Of a stretch of DNA of 64,000 nucleotides, positions 429 to 13,369 are shown one piece after another. The notes below the pieces were generated by a model. It did not search any database, was not told the origin of the DNA, and saw only the letters and a list, made by a program, of their open reading frames with translations. Each line of letters starts with the position of its first letter. The stretch's first letter is position 1. The translations under genes and the position numbers were made by a program. The DNA is taken from positions 7,232-71,231 of the forward strand of contig CAZQDS010000001.1 of NCBI GenBank assembly GCA_964591655.1. The letters run 5' to 3'. The DNA comes from an uncultured Methanosarcinales archaeon. GTDB taxonomy: Archaea; Nanobdellota; Nanobdellia; Woesearchaeales; UBA9642.

Positions 429-1382
429 ATGAAATATTTGCGTCAAATTAATAGCATAATAAATTCTAAAAAAAAACACATGGGTATTCCTGAAAAAATT
501 GTGAAAATAGAGCTATCAGAATTGGGCCGGGGAGAAAATTCGAGGAGCATTTTGGCAATAATAAACAAAAAATACAAGTTTGTCTTTAGGATAATATTGA
601 AAAACGTTTTCGAACAACATTCTTCTTTTGAAATGATGAATAAGATACACGCAGACATAGGTCCAAGATTCATTTTGTTCGATGATACAAGAAAGCACAT
701 GCAATTTCCTTATGCGATTTTTACATATGTAGAGGGCAAATCAAAGAAAAAATGGTCTAAAAAGGATTTGATGCTACACGCAAAATCCCTGGCACTTTTA
801 CATAGGGATTCTGAATTTCCCATCTCGCGAGCCCATAGACGTTCGGCCATCGACCCCGAGAAGAAGTTAAGGCATGATTTGAAATTGTTTAAAGGATCAA
901 GCGAAAATCCATCTGTTAAAATGCTGTTGCCAAAAATCATCAGATTCATACGCGATAATAAAAATTATTTTCCCCAAAAGAAAATGAATATCATACATGG
1001 AGACGCATGCAGCATAAATATCATGTTTCATAGCAATTCGGCCAGGTATATCGATTGGGAAAACTGCGCTTTCGGAGACAATGCAGAAGATATGGCGAGG
1101 ATATTTATACTAGGACATGGAGTTGAACCGTGGTTCATTGGACTAAGCGAATCTCGTCTTGAATCTTTTATAAAAGAATACATGAAATATTACCCTGACA
1201 TCAATCTGTATCCTCGGGTAATTGTTTGGAACATAACAAAATTATTCACTTCGCTTTTATATTTCATTTGGCGCATAAATAATTTTGATAAAAATAAAGT
1301 AATGTACCCAAAACACATGTATGAACAAGCAATCATCTCGATAACTGTTTTTCTTAAAAAAAGATTAGACACAAAAATATAA
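429..1382 (+). CDS. phosphotransferase family kinase (APH/choline-kinase-like fold)
   Basis: Catalytic-loop-like 'IIHGDACSINIMF' (HGD) and 'IDWENCAFGD' (DWE...D) motifs typical of the aminoglycoside phosphotransferase / ChoK family. Substrate unknown. Confidence 0.55.
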   Translation: MKYLRQINSIINSKKKHMGIPEKIVKIELSELGRGENSRSILAIINKKYKFVFRIILKNVFEQHSSFEMMNKIHADIGPRFILFDDTRKHMQFPYAIFTYVEGKSKKKWSKKDLMLHAKSLALLHRDSEFPISRAHRRSAIDPEKKLRHDLKLFKGSSENPSVKMLLPKIIRFIRDNKNYFPQKKMNIIHGDACSINIMFHSNSARYIDWENCAFGDNAEDMARIFILGHGVEPWFIGLSESRLESFIKEYMKYYPDINLYPRVIVWNITKLFTSLLYFIWRINNFDKNKVMYPKHMYEQAIISITVFLKKRLDTKI

Positions 1383-5368: not shown

Positions 5369-6202
5369 TTGTCGGAGGGAAAAATGATAGTTAAAGACGA
5401 ATTTTTAAGCAAACTAAGAAGGCACTTCGGACTTAATCTTTACGAAGTCAAGATATGGACTGCGCTGCTTTCCAGAGGCATAAGCACTGCTGGAGAACTT
5501 TCTGACATAGCGAACGTCCCAAGATCAAGAAGCTACGATATTCTTGAATCGCTGGAGAAGAAAGGATTTGTAGTCATGAAGATAGGGAAGCCCATAAAGT
5601 ATATAGCGGTCTCCCCGAAAGAGATTGTTGACAGGGTAAAGAAGAACGTCCGTGTAGAATCGGAAGACAGGCTGAAGAGACTTGAAGAATTGAAAGGCAC
5701 AGACATCGTGGACGAGTTGAACAACTTGCACACGCAAGGCATAGAGCTTGTAGAGCCTACAGAATTGTCTGGATCGTTGAAGGGAAGGCACAACCTATAC
5801 AATCATATGGAGTTGACGATAAAGAATGCTGAAGAGACAGTCACGATAATGACTACGACACAAGGATTGTTGAGGAAGATCGAAGGCATGAAGCCCGTGT
5901 TTGAGCAGTTGAAGAAACGTGGCGTAAAGATAAGGATATGCGCACCTTTGACTAAAGAGGCAGTCCCTGCAATAAAGGATCTTGGCAATGTCGCTGAAGT
6001 GAGAGGCACCGATGCGAAGGCAAGATTTGTCATCGTCGACCGTAAAGAGCTGCTTTTCATGATAACAGACGACACACAGGTCCATCCGACATATGACGTC
6101 GGAATATGGGTGAACACCCCATTCTTTGCGAATGCTCTTGAAGAATTGTTCGAGCTTGCATGGAAAGAGATGAAGCCTGCGAAACAAGTCTTGAAATTAT
6201 AA
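5369..6202 (+). CDS. TrmB-family transcriptional regulator
   Basis: N-terminal wHTH 'LYEVKIWTALLSRGISTAGELSDIANVPRSRSYDILESLEKKGFV' is characteristic of TrmB. Paralogue of 27074..27877. Confidence 0.7.
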   Translation: MSEGKMIVKDEFLSKLRRHFGLNLYEVKIWTALLSRGISTAGELSDIANVPRSRSYDILESLEKKGFVVMKIGKPIKYIAVSPKEIVDRVKKNVRVESEDRLKRLEELKGTDIVDELNNLHTQGIELVEPTELSGSLKGRHNLYNHMELTIKNAEETVTIMTTTQGLLRKIEGMKPVFEQLKKRGVKIRICAPLTKEAVPAIKDLGNVAEVRGTDAKARFVIVDRKELLFMITDDTQVHPTYDVGIWVNTPFFANALEELFELAWKEMKPAKQVLKL

Positions 6203-6229: not shown

Positions 6230-7117
6230 TTATTTTTGTTCTTTCTCAATCAAATACAACAGCTCGTTCTCTATAAGTATTTTCTCATATTTCCATTGAA
6301 GTTTCTCGAGCAATTTCTCAAGCCATACTCGACGATATTCTTTTATCTCGCGCACTCCAGAAAGCGATAATGTGGGGAAAGTGACTGCGATCAATTTGGT
6401 GTCGAGCGACTTGAATAATTTTTCTGTGATGTTCCTTTCTACACGCTCCAGGCCATCCAGTGTCTTGAATATGAAACACACATCACATTTTATTTTAGAT
6501 AGTTTCTTCAGGCTCTCTTTCTCCACTAAATCGAGAGGAAAAACTTCGTTGTCAATTCTTGTCTTAGAAAAATATTCTTTCAAGAACTTGCAGTCCTCTG
6601 AAGAGATGTCTGATGCGTAGTATTTCTTTATCTTGTCCCTGACGAATATGTTCGCGATCGGATTGAGGCCGCATGCGAGATCAAGAATGACGGCTTTTCC
6701 TTTCACATTCTCAAATATTCTCTCATACAATTCCTTATAATGGCCGAGTCGTTCATTTGTAGATTTGTGTAATTTCAACAATTCTATGTGTGTATCAATA
6801 TCGTTTTCGTCGATTAATTTTTTTAGTATCTTGTTCTTCTTCTCATACTCTTTCAATATGAACGCGCCATACACTTTCCGAAGCTCTGCACGGACATTCT
6901 TTATCAGGAAATCATGCTCCTTGCTCTTCGTGAATTGCTTATAATTCTTGCTCTTCGATAATTTTTCAAGTATCTTTTCCTTATACTGATAATTGCTGAT
7001 GTCAGAGAAGAACTCTCTTAATTTTCTCGCGACAAAATCCTCATCTAAGGCCCGCAACTCCTTCTTATCTTTAACATCGCTTACAATATCTTCAAAGAAA
7101 GCCATTTCTTCCATATC
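6230..7117 (-). CDS. FmrO/Rmt-ArmA-family 16S rRNA (guanine-N7) methyltransferase homologue
   Basis: 'AVILDLACGLNPIANIF...YASDIS' and 'LIAVTFPTLSLSGV' closely mirror RmtB/ArmA motifs ('VLDIACGLNPLAL', 'AVSFPTRSLGG'). The ORF track extends to 7183, but the likely start is the Met (MEEMAFF) whose ATG overlaps the Pelota stop. Confidence 0.5.
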   Translation of the reverse strand, partial: DMEEMAFFEDIVSDVKDKKELRALDEDFVARKLREFFSDISNYQYKEKILEKLSKSKNYKQFTKSKEHDFLIKNVRAELRKVYGAFILKEYEKKNKILKKLIDENDIDTHIELLKLHKSTNERLGHYKELYERIFENVKGKAVILDLACGLNPIANIFVRDKIKKYYASDISSEDCKFLKEYFSKTRIDNEVFPLDLVEKESLKKLSKIKCDVCFIFKTLDGLERVERNITEKLFKSLDTKLIAVTFPTLSLSGVREIKEYRRVWLEKLLEKLQWKYEKILIENELLYLIEKEQK

Positions 7118-8162
7118 AATAATTCTCCTTCCAGCGTAAAAGACAGGCAATCCCCGATAGTCCGTCAAGCTTCCTTGCCGCATCTTCTGAACTTATTATC
7201 CTTATCTCCGCATTCAATGTTTCTGCCTGTTCCATCATTGAATCTATCTGCCCATAGGACTTTTCTGAACGCATCTTCCTTATAAGGTTCTCCGATATAA
7301 GCAGCACCGAGATGTTCCCTGAATCTATCTTAGACTTCACATCAGCAATCCCGTATGCCGCATTCTCCTTGCTTATTGCGCCGAGCAATTCCTCTATCAA
7401 TGTTGTCTCTCTCGAAGATTGATCCTTTTCAAGCACCGTCTTAAGCTCGGGCCTCTTGAGTATCTCGTTTATCGTGCTTCCATCTATGCTGGAACATGAC
7501 GCGAGCGTAATCTTCTTTCTCAGCACTTCATCATCCAATTCCTTCAAAAGATACTCTTTCCAGAATGCAGGGCTCGCCAATACTATGCTGTTGAAAAGGT
7601 ATTTGTTATCGTAATCTTTCATTTTAGTTATTATCTCTTTGTAGAAGCTTGTCTTTTTCTCATCTGACTGCTCTTTCTTTGCGACATCGCCTTTTATCTC
7701 AAGGAGTATATCATAGCCATTATTCTTCAATAAGGCAAATATTGCCTCTTCCCTATCAAATGCGACAACTAGGACATGGAATGTCGTCTGTTTTGTCCCG
7801 TCATCAAGTTTTTTCAGGACATATTTTGTCCAATGGTCCTTCTCTATGCTTATGACTGTGCCTTCTTCTATGCCGAACGTGTGATACTCGCCCCTAGGGA
7901 CGTCTTCGGGTCCTTCAATTATCGGACCGGACACCCTCAACATCTCTTCGAAAGAAATCTTTTCGACCTTTATCTTCAAAAACACATTTATCCGCGATAT
8001 CTTTGATTTCTCATCAGCGCCACCCATCTTGATCTTCCTTTCAGTCATTCCACCAACTATATCTGATGGCTCTATTATCCCCTCTAAATACCACAGGTCG
8101 TCAGGGGCCTCTACCCTTATTTTTATCATCCCGTGTTTCAGGTCTTTTTGCAGCATCTTCAT
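7116..8162 (-). CDS. pelA: Pelota (Dom34) mRNA surveillance / ribosome rescue factor
   Basis: N-terminus 'MKMLQKDLKHGMIKIRVEAPDDLWYLEGIIEPSDIVGGMTERKIK' and an aRF1-like central/C-terminal domain; 348 aa. Confidence 0.75.
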   Translation of the reverse strand: MKMLQKDLKHGMIKIRVEAPDDLWYLEGIIEPSDIVGGMTERKIKMGGADEKSKISRINVFLKIKVEKISFEEMLRVSGPIIEGPEDVPRGEYHTFGIEEGTVISIEKDHWTKYVLKKLDDGTKQTTFHVLVVAFDREEAIFALLKNNGYDILLEIKGDVAKKEQSDEKKTSFYKEIITKMKDYDNKYLFNSIVLASPAFWKEYLLKELDDEVLRKKITLASCSSIDGSTINEILKRPELKTVLEKDQSSRETTLIEELLGAISKENAAYGIADVKSKIDSGNISVLLISENLIRKMRSEKSYGQIDSMMEQAETLNAEIRIISSEDAARKLDGLSGIACLLRWKENY

Positions 8163-8319
8163 ACAGCAATAGAATGAGACCCGTTATTTAAATTTAATTG
8201 TGATACATGACAATACGTAGCGCCATATATTGTGCTCAGGCAAGCACACAGATATATTGAGAATATAGTAAGATTTATAAACCGCAACAACGAAGAATTT
8301 ACATTAATTAACGACAAAG

Positions 8320-10002
8320 GTGAGCGTGATGCGTAAAGGACAATCTTCAAGCAGCGCAGCTGCATTTATCGCAATAATGACTGTGATAATCATTCTATAC
8401 ATATTATTCCTGCCTCCAGACATCAGGGAAGATCTTCTGTCTGACGGAAGTTCAGGTGGTGGAGGAAGCGGCGGCGGAGGCACAGGCTCAGGCACAACAA
8501 ATGTGTTGTTGAGGGAGACTGTAGGAAAAGTCTCATACCTCAAGGATACAGAAAAATATTATGACATACCCACCGTACGTGTCTATGCACCGACTTCTGG
8601 ACAGTTATTGAAAGGCGTCCCTTCGATTTTCATAAAGAATGCGTTGTTTGACAAGACACAATCGACATATAATATGAATTTTGATATAGACAAAAAATCT
8701 ACGACCAATATAATGTTGAGCTTCAACGTTAAAAACCATTACGGCCCATTATCGATATCATTGAATGATAGGGAGATATTCAATGGTGAAGTCGATGGCA
8801 ATAAGTTCTTAAGGATATCCGATTCAGACATTTTCGGGACTAATGAATTGAAACTCAGCGTCCCTAATCCGGGAGTGGTATTCTGGAAATCGAGCACGTA
8901 CAGCATAGAAAATCTTCAGATAACGGGTGATGTGACCGACTACAGCAGCAGCGTATCTTCACAGAGGTTCACTTTGACACAGACAGAAAAAGATAACCTA
9001 GAATCCGTGACCCTCTATTTCAGGCCGGTATGCACTATATCAGAAGTCGGGCCATTAGAGATACAATTGAACAAGAGGGTAATATTTGACTCTGTTGCAG
9101 ATTGTGGAACAAGAAGTTTTGCATCGCTGGACATAAACGAGATTGATGCAGGTTCAAATGAACTGAAGTTCAGCGTGGAGAAGGGATCATACCTATTGGA
9201 CAATCTTGCTGTAAAAGTGGATCTAGAGAAGCCCACATACAAGACATATTTCTTTGACATAGATGATGAATTCTTCATCAAGGACCCTGAACAGGCGAGA
9301 TGCGGCGATTATGACGATATCTGCCCGTCAGGATGCTCAGACATAAAGGATGCAGACTGCTGTTTCAGGCATAACGGGAATTGGTGCGCACTTCCGACAA
9401 GAAATGCAAACGACAGATGCGTATATTATGTCGATCCAGGTGATTGCGACCTTTGTCCGACAGGCTACTATGATGATTCATTCGACGTCCCAGACACCTG
9501 TGAAGAGAGGTGTGGAGACAATGATGACGGCATATGTCCTGAAGACTGCCCGAGCCCGTCAAGCGATTATGACGCAGATTGCTGTTATGAGGAGAACCCT
9601 GATTATTTCTTCTGTCAAGAAGTGCCTATAACAGGGTTGACGGATAAATGTAGGGCATCAGTCAGCTATACACAATGTGAATTATGCCCTTCAGGATATG
9701 AAGATGAAGACGGATCTGAGCCGGATTCCTGCGACGGCAGCATATATGAATATGAAGAGCTTGATGAATCGTTGGATACTGATTATGAAATGAGGCTTGT
9801 CGTCAGGTTCGTCAATGACGAGGACAGGAAAAGGATTGACGTAAACATAAACGGACATAAAGTGTCTATCGATACTAGGGAAATAGAATTCAAGAGGAAT
9901 ATCGATGATTACGTCAGGTCAGGAAGCAATAGCATAGAGCTTATTCCAAGAGAGGATGTAGACATCGCAGAATTACGGATTGAACTGATAAAGGTAAGCT
10001 GA
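8320..10002 (+). CDS. secreted/anchored Cys-rich repeat protein
   Basis: N-terminal TM/signal, then a Gly-rich linker (GGGGSGGGGTGSGT). The C-terminal half has two ~70-aa internal repeats with 'ICPxxC...DADCC...C(D/E)LCP(T/S)GY(Y/E)D...D(T/S)C' spacing. Confidence 0.5.
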   Translation: MSVMRKGQSSSSAAAFIAIMTVIIILYILFLPPDIREDLLSDGSSGGGGSGGGGTGSGTTNVLLRETVGKVSYLKDTEKYYDIPTVRVYAPTSGQLLKGVPSIFIKNALFDKTQSTYNMNFDIDKKSTTNIMLSFNVKNHYGPLSISLNDREIFNGEVDGNKFLRISDSDIFGTNELKLSVPNPGVVFWKSSTYSIENLQITGDVTDYSSSVSSQRFTLTQTEKDNLESVTLYFRPVCTISEVGPLEIQLNKRVIFDSVADCGTRSFASLDINEIDAGSNELKFSVEKGSYLLDNLAVKVDLEKPTYKTYFFDIDDEFFIKDPEQARCGDYDDICPSGCSDIKDADCCFRHNGNWCALPTRNANDRCVYYVDPGDCDLCPTGYYDDSFDVPDTCEERCGDNDDGICPEDCPSPSSDYDADCCYEENPDYFFCQEVPITGLTDKCRASVSYTQCELCPSGYEDEDGSEPDSCDGSIYEYEELDESLDTDYEMRLVVRFVNDEDRKRIDVNINGHKVSIDTREIEFKRNIDDYVRSGSNSIELIPREDVDIAELRIELIKVS

Positions 10003-10009
10003 TCCTAAA

Positions 10010-11974
10010 ATGAGATTTCTAGGACGATTGGTGGGAAAAACAGAGGTGGCTAAAGAGAACATTAAGGACGAGATAAATACACGTATAGATAATACGAAGC
10101 AGAATTGGAGTGATTTCAAGCAAAGGACTTCTGAAAGATATGATTCTGCAAAAGAAAAGACCCGTACATTCGCCAATAATGTCGCTCATCCGATAGATTA
10201 TTCTAAAAGGAGTTTTGAAGAAGGGCGAGCAGAGGCATTAAGGGAGCGAGAAAGAGAGCGCGAGCTCATAGAAGAGAGATTCGCCCGTGAATTAGAATCT
10301 GAGAAGAGAAAGATCCAATCAGCATCATCTAACAGGGAGAAGATGTTGGGCGCTGCAGCCATTGTCGCGCCTGAAGCAGGCCCTGCAATAGGGATGGCTG
10401 AAGAGAAGATGCATGAGAAAGATAATAAGAAGATTCAGAAAGAAGAAGAAAAATTGATGAAGAAGGAAGAAAGAGAATTGGATAAATCTAGCGGTAATGA
10501 TAAGAAATTCATGAACCGCATTGATGACTTGAGACAGGGCCCCAGTAGGGGCAGCGGATGGATGCAGAGGGGGCCAGGGATATTGTTCATACTTGCAGTT
10601 TTCGCATATTTCTTCGACTTGTTCACGGGATTCACTAGGCCGCCGAATTATGGCGTCATCCTACTCTATGGATTCATGATAATCATCGCAATGATTATGA
10701 CAAAAGTGTCGACCAATAAGTGGGTTAAAGACAGTGATTTTATGGGTTTTGTTGCGGCCATAGCATTCACTGTTGCATATCCATGGGTCATTGATGTGTT
10801 GAGGGAAAATATTCCTTATCAATTCTTGGTGGACCTGTTAGGACCGTTCCTGCTGTTCCCTCCAATGATAATGTATCTGATGTTCAAATACCCAGAGAAT
10901 AGTGCGATGCATAAGACGGCCGTATGGATAATAATTGCGCTGGCACTCTATGCTTTCTTAGTGTTATTGAATAGTCCTACGCTTCAAGGAACGACTGTTG
11001 CAGGGAAGATAACGATTACTAAACCATGGGATCTGATTAAAGACTTCGGAGGGAATGTCGTCGATGCCGCAACAGGGGCGGTGAATAATATGGAAAGGTC
11101 TTTCCAGATAGCGATAGCGAAAGCTACCGGACAAAAATATGAAGGTGAAGAAGAGGAACAGCGAGGCATCCTCATCGAGAACGTCAAAGCTGTCGAGAAG
11201 AATTATTACACGAGTTCAGACATCTATGTCCAGGGCAAGATAAAGGCGCAGAATCTTGTCGGGGAAGTGAATGTGAGGACAAGATGTTACGTCAAAAATA
11301 AGGGAAACGGGACTACGTATCCTGAGATGTTGACGATGGTGACAAACGACGAGAACATCATTGACTGCCATCTAGGGCAATTGCCGAAGGGGAATTATCA
11401 GGTGTTTGTCGCGGCAACATTCATTTTCATAACGGATGCAGACATACAGTATTATTTTGTTGATGAAAAGACACGGCCGGAACTCTATGACAAGATGAAC
11501 ATACCTGATAAAGCCATGGCCACATATACCGGAGGCCCTGTTGAAGTAGGGTTGCCTTCACTGAATCTGCCTTTAAGGCTGAGCGCTGATGGGAGCAATC
11601 CGCGCGTAGGCAATTATCCTTTCGGAGTATCTCTCACAAACAAATGGAGTCAGGGGAAGGTTAACAGGGGGATCAATTATACATTAGAGGTCCCTGACGG
11701 TTTTGAATTGAAGGAATGCAACAGGGTGCTGACTTATTCTGGCCAAAAGAGCAGCGAGAGTGGACGAAGATGGGTATATACTTTCGATACGGACGATCAG
11801 AACATAAAAGAGACATTTGATAGTGTGACATGCAGGATGCATGCAGTCAACCCTTCATCGATATTCAACGGAGATATAGTCGCAATGAAGACATTCAACG
11901 CCAGGGCAGTCTATGAGTATACTGTTGAAGGAAGCGTAAGCATAAATGTCCAGCAAGATTATTATGGAGGATGA
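10010..11974 (+). CDS. polytopic membrane protein with N-terminal charged coiled-coil domain
   Basis: About 190 aa K/E/R-rich N-terminus, about 4 hydrophobic helices (residues ~195-330), and a large C-terminal non-cytoplasmic domain. 8 bp from the upstream gene. Confidence 0.5.
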   Translation: MRFLGRLVGKTEVAKENIKDEINTRIDNTKQNWSDFKQRTSERYDSAKEKTRTFANNVAHPIDYSKRSFEEGRAEALRERERERELIEERFARELESEKRKIQSASSNREKMLGAAAIVAPEAGPAIGMAEEKMHEKDNKKIQKEEEKLMKKEERELDKSSGNDKKFMNRIDDLRQGPSRGSGWMQRGPGILFILAVFAYFFDLFTGFTRPPNYGVILLYGFMIIIAMIMTKVSTNKWVKDSDFMGFVAAIAFTVAYPWVIDVLRENIPYQFLVDLLGPFLLFPPMIMYLMFKYPENSAMHKTAVWIIIALALYAFLVLLNSPTLQGTTVAGKITITKPWDLIKDFGGNVVDAATGAVNNMERSFQIAIAKATGQKYEGEEEEQRGILIENVKAVEKNYYTSSDIYVQGKIKAQNLVGEVNVRTRCYVKNKGNGTTYPEMLTMVTNDENIIDCHLGQLPKGNYQVFVAATFIFITDADIQYYFVDEKTRPELYDKMNIPDKAMATYTGGPVEVGLPSLNLPLRLSADGSNPRVGNYPFGVSLTNKWSQGKVNRGINYTLEVPDGFELKECNRVLTYSGQKSSESGRRWVYTFDTDDQNIKETFDSVTCRMHAVNPSSIFNGDIVAMKTFNARAVYEYTVEGSVSINVQQDYYGG

Positions 11975-13369
11975 ATGAGCAAGACACATCTATTTATCGG
12001 ATTGATGATCATTCTTGTCATGGTCAGTGCGTGTGACGGACAGAAAACGACCACTAACTATCATCTGGGGACGCAAGGCATTGTGTTAGAGAAATTATCT
12101 AGCAACCCGGATATTGTTTATGAGGAAGAAACATTCGCATTCGGGATGATGCTGAAGAATCAGGGGGCTGCAGATGTCGAAGGAGGCGTCCTCATGGTGA
12201 ATTTCGATGATTTCTTCCTGGAATTAGACGATTATCAATCACAGAGCGGAAAGACACAGCAAGTGACCCTAGAAGGCAAAAGCATAGAGAGCCCTATGGG
12301 AGGGGCTGATTATCTTGAATGGGTATTCAAATCAAAAACCCTTGAGGTGATCAGGACAGGTGTCGAAAGCAAAGTGAATTTCAACGTGTGCTATAATTAT
12401 AATACTGATTTGACGACAGAAGTATGTCTCGATACACGAACAAGGACTTCAGACCAGAGGAGCTATGCCTGCAAAAGCAAGGACTACTCTAGCAATTCCG
12501 GGCAGGGGGCGCCCATATCCATAACAAAAATAGAGCCGGAGATGATGCTCGTAGGCAACAATGTCAGGCCATTATTCAGGATATACATAAAAAATGAAGG
12601 AGAAGGATATACTTTGAGCCCGGAAAAAAATCTCTGCACGAACCCTACAAAGAATGCCTCTGAACTTAACAAATTGAAAGTCAGTGCATGGATATCCGAC
12701 GATATGCCATTAGAATGCAACCCTGAAGAAGTGCGATTGGTGGACGGGGAGACTATCGCGAGATGTTATGTTGAAGATGGGGACTTGGAGGAATTCGGCA
12801 GGGAGACCGTCAATTATCTGACCATATTGCGTGTATTATTAGAATACGATTATGTGGATTCAGAAGTCATCAATCTCAAGATAAACAGGATCAATGAGAT
12901 AGACATAAAGAGTCCGAGTGTTTGCGGATATTACGAGATGCAACAGGGTGACCGATGCATACCGTTGTGTGATTTCTGCGTCAACAATCCTAATGACGAA
13001 GCATGCAAACGAAACATGAATGCATCGATCGGATTCGATTGGAACGATGCGTCTGATTTCAGATGCGCATGCAGCAAAGAAAAATGTTTGGCATTGAATA
13101 AGGAGGGGAAATGCATATTCGGATATTGTCCAGGAAGTAGCTATTGTTGCTCTACAGATGAATGCAGAGAAAAGGCCGATGGCGCCAAGTGCGGAGACAA
13201 TAATGTGTGCATCGCGAACATATGTATGCGAGGCGTGACTCAATGTGATTATAAGTTCGGCATGCAGAATTATACTTGCAACAGCAGGCCAGACTGCATC
13301 AACACCACAATAAAGACAGGATATTGCCCTGGCGATGAGAATAATGTTTGCTGCAAAACGACAAATTAG
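11975..13369 (+). CDS. lipoprotein, paralogue family member 1, with Cys-rich C-terminal extension
   Basis: Lipobox-like 'VMVSAC'; conserved core 'VCYNYNTDLTTEVCLD...SNSGQGAPISITKIEPE'. The C-terminal ~150 aa carry more than 25 Cys. Confidence 0.5.
   Translation: MSKTHLFIGLMIILVMVSACDGQKTTTNYHLGTQGIVLEKLSSNPDIVYEEETFAFGMMLKNQGAADVEGGVLMVNFDDFFLELDDYQSQSGKTQQVTLEGKSIESPMGGADYLEWVFKSKTLEVIRTGVESKVNFNVCYNYNTDLTTEVCLDTRTRTSDQRSYACKSKDYSSNSGQGAPISITKIEPEMMLVGNNVRPLFRIYIKNEGEGYTLSPEKNLCTNPTKNASELNKLKVSAWISDDMPLECNPEEVRLVDGETIARCYVEDGDLEEFGRETVNYLTILRVLLEYDYVDSEVINLKINRINEIDIKSPSVCGYYEMQQGDRCIPLCDFCVNNPNDEACKRNMNASIGFDWNDASDFRCACSKEKCLALNKEGKCIFGYCPGSSYCCSTDECREKADGAKCGDNNVCIANICMRGVTQCDYKFGMQNYTCNSRPDCINTTIKTGYCPGDENNVCCKTTN

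Follow-up and report, generated by a model that had tools for sequence, protein, structure and literature searches.

An Arm-family rRNA methyltransferase encoded behind pelota in Woesearchaeota: probably a housekeeping relative of the aminoglycoside-resistance enzymes

What is a homologue of the aminoglycoside-resistance methyltransferases ArmA and RmtB doing behind the pelota gene of an archaeon? The question is raised by a 64,000-nucleotide stretch of contig CAZQDS010000001.1 (assembly GCA_964591655.1, positions 7,232 to 71,231, forward strand), which was deposited as DNA of an uncultured Methanosarcinales archaeon and is placed by GTDB in the Woesearchaeales; this whole stretch is called the window, and coordinates below are window coordinates. 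An earlier note on this DNA had assigned one of its genes to the FmrO/ArmA-RmtB group of 16S rRNA methyltransferases that produce 7-methylguanosine (m7G) at G1405, and left a choice between an intrinsic rRNA-modification enzyme and an acquired antibiotic-defence function. The evidence fits the intrinsic option and fits the acquired one poorly, judging by the spread of the family, its monophyly, its operon context and its co-divergence with pelota. In the reading that we favor, with a probability of about 0.6, the gene encodes an intrinsic, vertically inherited guanine-N7 methyltransferase of small-subunit rRNA, which is expressed together with pelota and acts near the decoding centre of the near-mature subunit, with aminoglycoside insensitivity at most a by-product. 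It would then be a chromosomal housekeeping gene of Woesearchaeota/Nanoarchaeota (DPANN), and not a recently acquired resistance gene.

The gene and the elements next to it are the following.

6230 to 7114, minus strand: S-adenosylmethionine (SAM)-dependent rRNA methyltransferase of the Arm/Kgm/FmrO family, 294 amino acids, recognised by open reading frame (ORF), profile and fold
7116 to 8162, minus strand: pelota (aPelota/Dom34), the upstream gene of the operon; TIGR00111 at 202.7 bits against a cut-off of 177.65, with domains eRF1_1, eRF1_2 and eRF1_3
7125 to 7128, minus strand: GGAG, a Shine-Dalgarno-like motif read from the sequence, 10 nucleotides 5' of the ATG at 7114 and within the 3' end of pelota
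8186 to 8195, minus strand: AATTTAAATA, a TATA-like box about 30 nucleotides before the pelota ATG, a candidate promoter

The methyltransferase reads from ATG at 7114..7112 to TAA at 6232..6230, and its product is identical to the NCBI-deposited protein P0001 (100% identity over 100% of the length). The pelota stop TGA lies at 7118..7116, so that the junction is TGAtATG, with a one-nucleotide spacer. The earlier note needs correction on two points here: it put the start at 7117, where the codon is GAT, and it had the start overlapping the pelota stop, an arrangement that is usual among the relatives and is replaced in the window by the one-nucleotide gap. The peptide blocks that it quoted, VILDLACGLNPIAN, YYASDISS and LIAVTFPTLSLSGV, are all found in the minus-strand ORF. 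A longer ORF of 317 codons, opening at ATG 7183, was rejected; it would overlap pelota by 68 nucleotides, its extension has no counterpart in the homologues, and the NCBI protein has 294 residues.

Sequence searches place the product in a single family. Pfam FmrO (PF07091) matches with 79.1 bits (E=4.7e-22, gathering cut-off 27) over 222 of 255 profile positions, and nothing else in the Pfam scan of this protein rises above threshold. The generic Rmt model of NCBIfam, NF000466, gives 147.4 bits (E=4.8e-43); the best of the specific models is RmtH, at 75.8 bits against a cut-off of 500, and the models for RmtB to RmtH all score far below their cut-offs. In a single-sequence search of PDB, the strong matches are confined to ArmA (3fzg, 8.7e-18), Sgm (3lcu, 1.6e-17), RmtF (6pi9), RmtB and RmtC. 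When a profile built from 28 archaeal homologues is used instead, the same group extends from Sgm (3lcu, 3e-39) down to RmtB (8e-29), and the next family comes at 3e-3. A better fit to a Trm or RsmB-like family, which the earlier note had named as a ground for abandoning the assignment, was looked for and did not arise in profile searches: Trm, RsmB-like, RsmG, Bud23 and NpmA/Kam A1408 families give no match at E<=0.1 in Pfam or NCBIfam. One other candidate likeness, to the Leishmania mitoribosomal protein mS56 (7ane chain ai, kinetoplastid small subunit; phmmer E=0.003, query residues 66-211), is absent at E<=0.01 when the family profile is used and was set aside as probably generic methyltransferase similarity.

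The fold leads to the same family. The AlphaFold2 model is confident (mean predicted local distance difference test score 91.2, predicted template modelling score 0.81), and consists of eight helices, forming an N-terminal domain of approximately residues 1-134, followed by the alternating β/α core of a Rossmann fold. Sixteen structures head the Foldseek ranking against PDB, all of them Sgm, RmtB, RmtC, RmtF or ArmA, and generic methyltransferases follow at about 1e-7. Template modelling (TM) scores of these sixteen are 0.53-0.75 when normalised by the query (0.61-0.75 for full-length targets) and 0.64-0.84 when normalised by the target. The alignments to Sgm, RmtF and RmtB span the whole protein, with its helical N-terminal domain, at target-normalised scores of 0.82-0.84; for Sgm structure 3lcv the two values are 0.74 (query) and 0.83 (target). 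The comparison of a predicted structure with RmtB, suggested in the earlier note, thus comes out in favor of its assignment, as do the PF07091, NF000466 and PDB matches.

Archaeal proteins of this kind have been seen before. NEQ545 of Nanoarchaeum equitans entered the literature as the Arm family's 'first archaeal ortholog', a protein of unclear function whose C-terminal motifs are perfect and whose N-terminal domain has diverged (Husain et al. 2010, PMC2896518), and this homologue is listed as the only functionally assignable gene among 15 signature genes specific to Nanoarchaeota (Podar et al. 2013, PMC3655853). Our literature search found no further paper mentioning NEQ545, and none on the family in DPANN or Woesearchaeota. 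Some of the homologues carry the JGI automatic annotation '16S rRNA (guanine(1405)-N(7))-methyltransferase'. The window gene is therefore a further member of a known, uncharacterised archaeal branch of a known family, and not a new system. Like NEQ545 and its Nst1 orthologue, it is a chromosomal Arm member of Nanoarchaeota in which the C-terminal catalytic motifs are conserved and the helical N-terminal domain has diverged. NEQ545, which we compare by its published description only, was reported to be missing one N-terminal helix, whereas the N-terminal domain of the window protein is longer than the bacterial one. Neither the phylum-wide spread nor the pelota and aDim2 operon context described below is found in the two NEQ545 papers.

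The spread of the family is wide. A word-indexed protein search returned 137 relatives, the named ones being metagenome-assembled genomes (MAGs) of 'Candidatus Woesearchaeota', 'Nanoarchaeota' or 'Nanoarchaeia'. When one genome for each GTDB species was scanned with a pattern, at least 586 genomes proved to encode a relative, and the best 80 of these loci are all from Woesearchaeota/Nanoarchaeota MAGs. A phmmer search of 1.84 billion representatives at 50% identity found 1242 clusters at E<=1e-3, 732 at E<=1e-10 and 136 at E<=1e-30. The statement of the earlier note that such enzymes are otherwise typical of aminoglycoside producers and resistance plasmids is not supported, given the archaeal members known since 2010, the Nanoarchaeota signature gene of 2013 and the chromosomal kin of ArmA.

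A phylogeny, likewise proposed in the earlier note, sets the archaeal branch apart. A neighbor-joining tree of 254 columns compares 28 archaeal sequences with 35 ArmA relatives, RmtC, RmtH and Sgm; all 100 bootstrap replicates recover the archaeal side as a single bipartition, with the caveat that the members of each group had been picked for their likeness to that group's seed sequence. Pairwise distances of the methyltransferase and of pelota are strongly correlated across 34 genomes (Mantel r=0.877, p=0.001), with mean p-distances of 0.59 and 0.55, respectively. The GC content at the gene, 0.40, equals the window average. Because of this matching composition, the monophyly of the clade and the co-divergence with pelota, we reject recent horizontal acquisition.

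Some taxonomic labels on related loci are implausible. 'Uncultured Methanosarcinales archaeon' is attached to many loci from co-assemblies (for example L013, L019 and L020), the record title of L018 (DASPMU010000053.1) also looks wrong, and one locus is labelled 'Alphaproteobacteria bacterium'. These mislabelled-looking contigs carry the woesearchaeal block of pelota, methyltransferase and TrmB, with or without archaeal phenylalanyl-tRNA synthetase (PheRS), and their proteins are up to 84-97% identical to those of the window.

The neighborhood of the gene was surveyed in 80 species-representative loci, 77 of which were informative. In 34 of the 77, the gene immediately before the methyltransferase, on the same strand, is pelota, and in three more a gene is inserted between the two. 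In another 13 loci, the place of pelota is taken by the gene of a KH-domain protein, which eIF1A usually precedes, and the KH gene is nearby in two more. This protein matches TIGR03665 ('arCOG04150 universal archaeal KH domain protein') with 200 bits against a cut-off of 114, and Pfam puts it with KH_KRR1/KH_PNO1, that is, aDim2/Pno1. Measured from the upstream stop to the nearest in-frame methyltransferase ATG, the spacers are -4 to -22 nucleotides at 25 of 33 pelota loci and negative at 12 of 13 KH loci, with -4 in seven of them. These mostly negative spacers point to coupling of methyltransferase translation to that of the upstream gene across the family. In the window itself, co-transcription with pelota is almost certain, in line with the operon proposed in the earlier note. 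There is no A/T-rich box before the methyltransferase ATG in the window sequence comparable to the one before pelota. The arrangement would fit a leaderless bicistronic message in which pelota comes first and the methyltransferase is the Shine-Dalgarno-led second cistron, with GGAG as its putative ribosome-binding site.

The residues of the active site were followed through an alignment of 117 archaeal homologues with RmtC, RmtH, ArmA and 31 ArmA relatives, the last four items making up a bacterial set of 34. Residue roles were taken from studies of Sgm (Husain et al. 2010, PMC2896518) and of RmtC (including PMC10288597). The main elements are these.

6749 to 6769, minus strand: motif HKSTNER, H116 to R122; the equivalents of R122 (Sgm R108) and S118 (RmtC S107) contact the SAM carboxyl group
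6659 to 6682, minus strand: motif I, DLACGLNP, D145 to P152, the SAM loop with its glycine, G149 (Sgm G135)
6464 to 6466, minus strand: Lys217, equivalent to RmtC Lys204, a contact of N7 in the flipped G1405 (PMC10288597); lysine in 117 of 117 homologues
6356 to 6379, minus strand: FPTLSLSG block, F246 to G253, preceding the loop equivalent to RmtC Loop237-246; L249 replaces RmtC K236

Within the archaeal set the SAM-binding site is close to invariant. In the HxSTxER motif, H116 is found in 116 of the 117 sequences and S118, E121 and R122 in all, as are D145, C148, G149, N151 and P152 of motif I. The acidic residue of motif II, D169 (Sgm D156, RmtC D160), is D in 108 and E in nine, and D195 (Sgm D182) is kept in 115. 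On the side of the guanine, F85, equivalent to RmtC Y60, which stacks between SAM and the flipped base, is F in 115 and Y in two; R75 (RmtC R50) is present in 116, and K72 (RmtC K47) is also kept. I257, which corresponds to the residue that RmtC wedges into helix 44 (h44), M245, is I, F, M or L, hydrophobic in all 117. With SAM-binding and catalytic residues thus retained, the enzyme looks catalytically competent. As for the FPTxSLxG signature, to which the earlier note ascribed target recognition, the block itself is there (F in 117 homologues, P in 101, G in 107), and what is lost in the window protein is its inner Lys/Arg, equivalent to RmtC K236, which has become leucine.

A course of action can be proposed for the favored reading. 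The methyltransferase would share a transcript with pelota, made from a promoter before that gene, and a Shine-Dalgarno site of its own would serve its translation, which would start one nucleotide past the pelota stop. By analogy with RmtC, its helical N-terminal domain would dock on h24/h27/h44/h45 of the mature or near-mature small subunit, and the loop after the FPTxSLxG strand would push the hydrophobic I257 into h44. A guanine would then flip into the pocket made by F85, K217 and SAM, and receive a methyl group at N7. The likeliest target is the G1405 equivalent in the decoding centre; every biochemically tested member of the family methylates N7 of G1405 (2009 study). Insensitivity to 4,6-disubstituted deoxystreptamine aminoglycosides would be a side effect, and not the selected function.

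Several observations weigh against this reading, above all against G1405 as the target. At the level of profiles, the NF000466 score remains under the equivalog cut-off of 250. At the level of context, 25 of the 77 loci have unrelated neighbors, such as a major facilitator superfamily transporter, a MiaB-like radical-SAM protein, an Rsm22-like methyltransferase, MutS or an integrase. At the level of residues, contacts to rRNA have been exchanged throughout the clade. RmtC Y21, which is Y in 33 of the 34 bacterial sequences, is replaced by L20 (L in 108 and I in seven of 117), and H54, invariant in the bacterial set (34 of 34), by R79 (R in 105). The position of K236 is occupied by L in 79 archaeal homologues, K in 17, V in nine and R in five (L/V/I in 91), and that of P/T207 by D220 (D in 116). 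Substitutions Y21F, of H54, and K236E lower or abolish the activity of RmtC (RmtC studies including PMC10288597). RmtC K20 also has a different equivalent here, E19, with a KK pair one position nearer the N-terminus. With these contacts replaced, the rRNA-reading surface, to judge from the alignment, is unlike that of the characterised G1405 enzymes. Experimental data point the same way. The m7G at position 1405 stops cleavage by RNase T1 there (2009 study), and mass spectrometry (MALDI-MS) of nucleotides 1390-1446 of N. equitans 16S rRNA recovered the T1 fragment UC(Am)(Am)Gp, corresponding to 1406-1410, so that T1 had cut after G1405 (Seistrup et al. 2016). Stoichiometric m7G1405 is therefore unlikely in N. 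equitans, the one cultured archaeon with a reported Arm homologue, the orthology of NEQ545 to the window clade being taken from the literature. In addition, a 'grm-like' homologue from the Candidate Phyla Radiation (CPR) left aminoglycoside minimum inhibitory concentrations (MICs) in E. coli unchanged (2026 preprint).

The main rival reading is an enzyme of the same family with another job, retargeted either within the 3' minor domain, to another guanine such as G1401, or to a pre-small-subunit particle; it would serve as a late maturation checkpoint, possibly as a substitute for KsgA/Dim1. The RmtC residues lost across the clade are those that read G1516 of h45 (Y21, H54) and G1405 (K236), in addition to the change from P207 to D, and the region before HxST, with a median of 117 residues in the archaeal clade against 90 in bacterial members, makes the N-terminal domain about 27 residues longer. 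In N. equitans, fragments that contain nucleotide 1402 were never observed at the expected mass, and RiboMeth-seq suggests that G1401 is modified (Seistrup et al. 2016). The same study reported that N. equitans, Nst1 and N. acidilobi, all three Nanoarchaeota then known, are without RsmA/KsgA/Dim1, whereas the Arm homologue is a signature gene of Nanoarchaeota, and in the 13 KH loci the gene stands right behind the aDim2/Pno1 gene, often overlapping it, with eIF1A. On the other hand, all characterised members target G1405; the stacking aromatic residue, the catalytic lysine and the hydrophobic residue inserted into h44 are kept; the orthology of NEQ545 to the window clade is literature-based; and the reported 'sequence ambiguity' at G1401 was not shown to be m7G. 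On balance we consider retargeting unlikely. Its boldest version is more doubtful still: that the Arm-family enzyme of Nanoarchaeota (sensu GTDB, with Woesearchaeota) is no G1405 enzyme of the resistance type and has taken the place of KsgA/Dim1, elsewhere a near-universal late checkpoint of the small subunit, docking on h24/h27/h44/h45, working with aDim2/Pno1 and pelota-dependent quality control, and methylating some other guanine of the decoding region, such as G1401.

Dedicated antibiotic defence would mean that the enzyme protects the ribosome from 4,6-disubstituted deoxystreptamines made by neighboring bacteria, in the manner of producer self-resistance. All characterised relatives do confer high-level resistance to kanamycin and gentamicin, and A1408 is retained in the one archaeon examined (as Am1408, in N. 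equitans). As far as is known, G1405 is also retained in archaeal 16S rRNA, and the drug site would therefore exist in archaea. Against defence stand the occurrence of the gene across the phylum, in MAGs from sources as varied as groundwater and lake sediment (to judge from isolate names), its tight operon with pelota or aDim2, and its co-divergence with pelota. Aminoglycoside uptake, moreover, needs a respiration-driven membrane potential, an argument made for CPR in a 2026 preprint and extended by us, by inference, to fermentative DPANN. The gene also has no linkage to other resistance genes, and the one neighbor that could suggest such a theme is the following.

429 to 1382, plus strand: ORF with the APH/choline-kinase fold, PF01636 at 32.6 bits; a generic match, without a specific family

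The earlier note had placed this APH-fold kinase 6 kb upstream of the methyltransferase. In fact it lies about 4.8 kb past the 3' end of the methyltransferase, that is, downstream of it and on the opposite strand, and seven unrelated genes separate the two: a TrmB-like gene, NUDIX, AAA_17, a methyltransferase, a radical-SAM-like gene and two Lrp/TrmB-like regulators. It scores 17.9 bits with the APH(3') model, whose cut-off is 205, and thiamine kinase, homoserine kinase and Bud32 models score similarly. A homologue near the methyltransferase was found in one of about 98 related loci. A functional tie between the two genes was accordingly rejected, the match being generic and the pair not syntenic. 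No aminoglycoside-biosynthesis genes were seen near the methyltransferase, and mobile elements are represented by one gene, for a phage-type integrase, which directly precedes the methyltransferase in L048 (one of 80 loci); of the 25 loci with unrelated neighbors, this examination covered about ten. The window gene itself is chromosomal and operonic, with no plasmid, transposon or insertion sequence (IS)-flanked setting. Defence as the selected function thus appears improbable.

A catalytically dead or moonlighting binder of the small subunit, acting as an assembly or hibernation-like factor, would suit the neighbors pelota and aDim2 and the unchanged MICs with the CPR homologue, but is very improbable indeed, as all 117 sequences, which are only 31-85% identical in other respects, keep the SAM-binding and catalytic residues unchanged, an indication of purifying selection on catalysis.

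How does the intrinsic enzyme that we favor compare with the better known ones? With ArmA and RmtA-H (3fzg, 3frh, 6pqb, 8ghu, 6pi9) it shares the two-domain fold, the SAM-binding residues and the correspondences K204/K217, Y60/F85, R50/R75 and M245/I257 (RmtC/window protein). It differs from them in having only 25-30% identity, in the replacement of Y21, H54, K236 and P207, and in belonging to a separate clade. The rmtH gene is flanked by IS91-family transposase genes on both sides, and rmtC has such a gene on one side and blaNDM-1 on the other, unlike the window gene. The producer enzymes Sgm, KgmB, GrmA and FmrO include the closest match by profile and structure, Sgm; in contrast to them, the window gene stands outside any aminoglycoside cluster, in a low-GC archaeal genome and in an operon with a translation gene. 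The similarity to KsgA/RsmA/Dim1 is one of functional analogy only, in that these are late small-subunit methyltransferases docking on h24/h27/h44/h45; eukaryotic Dim1 works with Dim2/Pno1, the archaeal homologue of which is encoded upstream of the methyltransferase in the 13 KH loci. They differ in domain (PF00398), chemistry (m6,2A) and target (A1518/A1519 of h45), and there is no sequence relationship.

ArmA has its closest relatives, at about 37-41% identity, on the chromosomes of uncultivated bacteria, including one with the label Moranbacteria. Two such genes (L095 5001-5798 and L097 5001-5780) are surrounded by housekeeping genes, fmt or L7/L12-L10-L1-L11-NusG, and are not carried by mobile elements. 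Intrinsic genes of lineages like these may be the origin of the clinical ones.

The gene on the other side of the methyltransferase is also part of a recurrent arrangement.

5369 to 6202, plus strand: TrmB/TrmBL2-like winged-helix gene, Pfam TrmB E=5e-19, convergent with the methyltransferase

It is one of the genes of the conserved pelota-methyltransferase-TrmB(-PheRS) block, without sharing in the function of the methyltransferase. The TrmB-like protein is 70-97% identical across Nanoarchaeota loci (mean p-distance 0.23), and pelota and the methyltransferase are 31-85% identical (0.55-0.59); such high conservation would fit an abundant chromatin-type protein or global regulator.

On the far side of pelota, divergent from it, three ORFs follow on the plus strand, at 8320-10002 (560 amino acids), 10010-11974 (654 amino acids) and 11975-13369 (464 amino acids). 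The products of the first two have no match in a Pfam scan. At least the first and the third are cysteine-rich, and the first also shows a hydrophobic segment at its N-terminus and a Gly-rich tract; a homologue of this first protein is encoded near pelota in 36 related loci. A role of the three at the cell surface is possible. No tRNA genes or Rfam families were found across the whole 64-kb window.

Variations of the block occur elsewhere. A GNAT acetyltransferase (Acetyltransf_1/3), for which there is no NCBIfam match, sits between pelota and the methyltransferase in some Woesearchaeota, at L002 (4457-4987) and also at L012. Proteins of about 480 amino acids in three clusters at 50% identity (P0270, P0284, P0314) are fusions of an FmrO domain with a class I methyltransferase domain that follows it; the second domain is a generic Methyltransf_11/25, with the DVU_1556 family as its best NCBIfam match. 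L055 and L089 instead have a second methyltransferase as a gene of its own, directly upstream.

At present, this is a well-supported annotation accompanied by hypotheses: family, fold, retention of the SAM-binding and catalytic residues, spread through the phylum and operon context are established, and transcription, mode of docking, target nucleotide and physiological role are deduced from them. If constitutive m7G at or near G1405 were confirmed, a whole archaeal phylum would natively bear the mark that is behind clinical pan-aminoglycoside resistance, and the Arm family would be an old housekeeping family of rRNA modification, the source from which resistance genes were recruited. The linkage with pelota and aDim2, together with the reported absence of KsgA/Dim1 from cultured Nanoarchaeota, makes this enzyme a testable candidate for a factor of small-subunit maturation in these reduced organisms.

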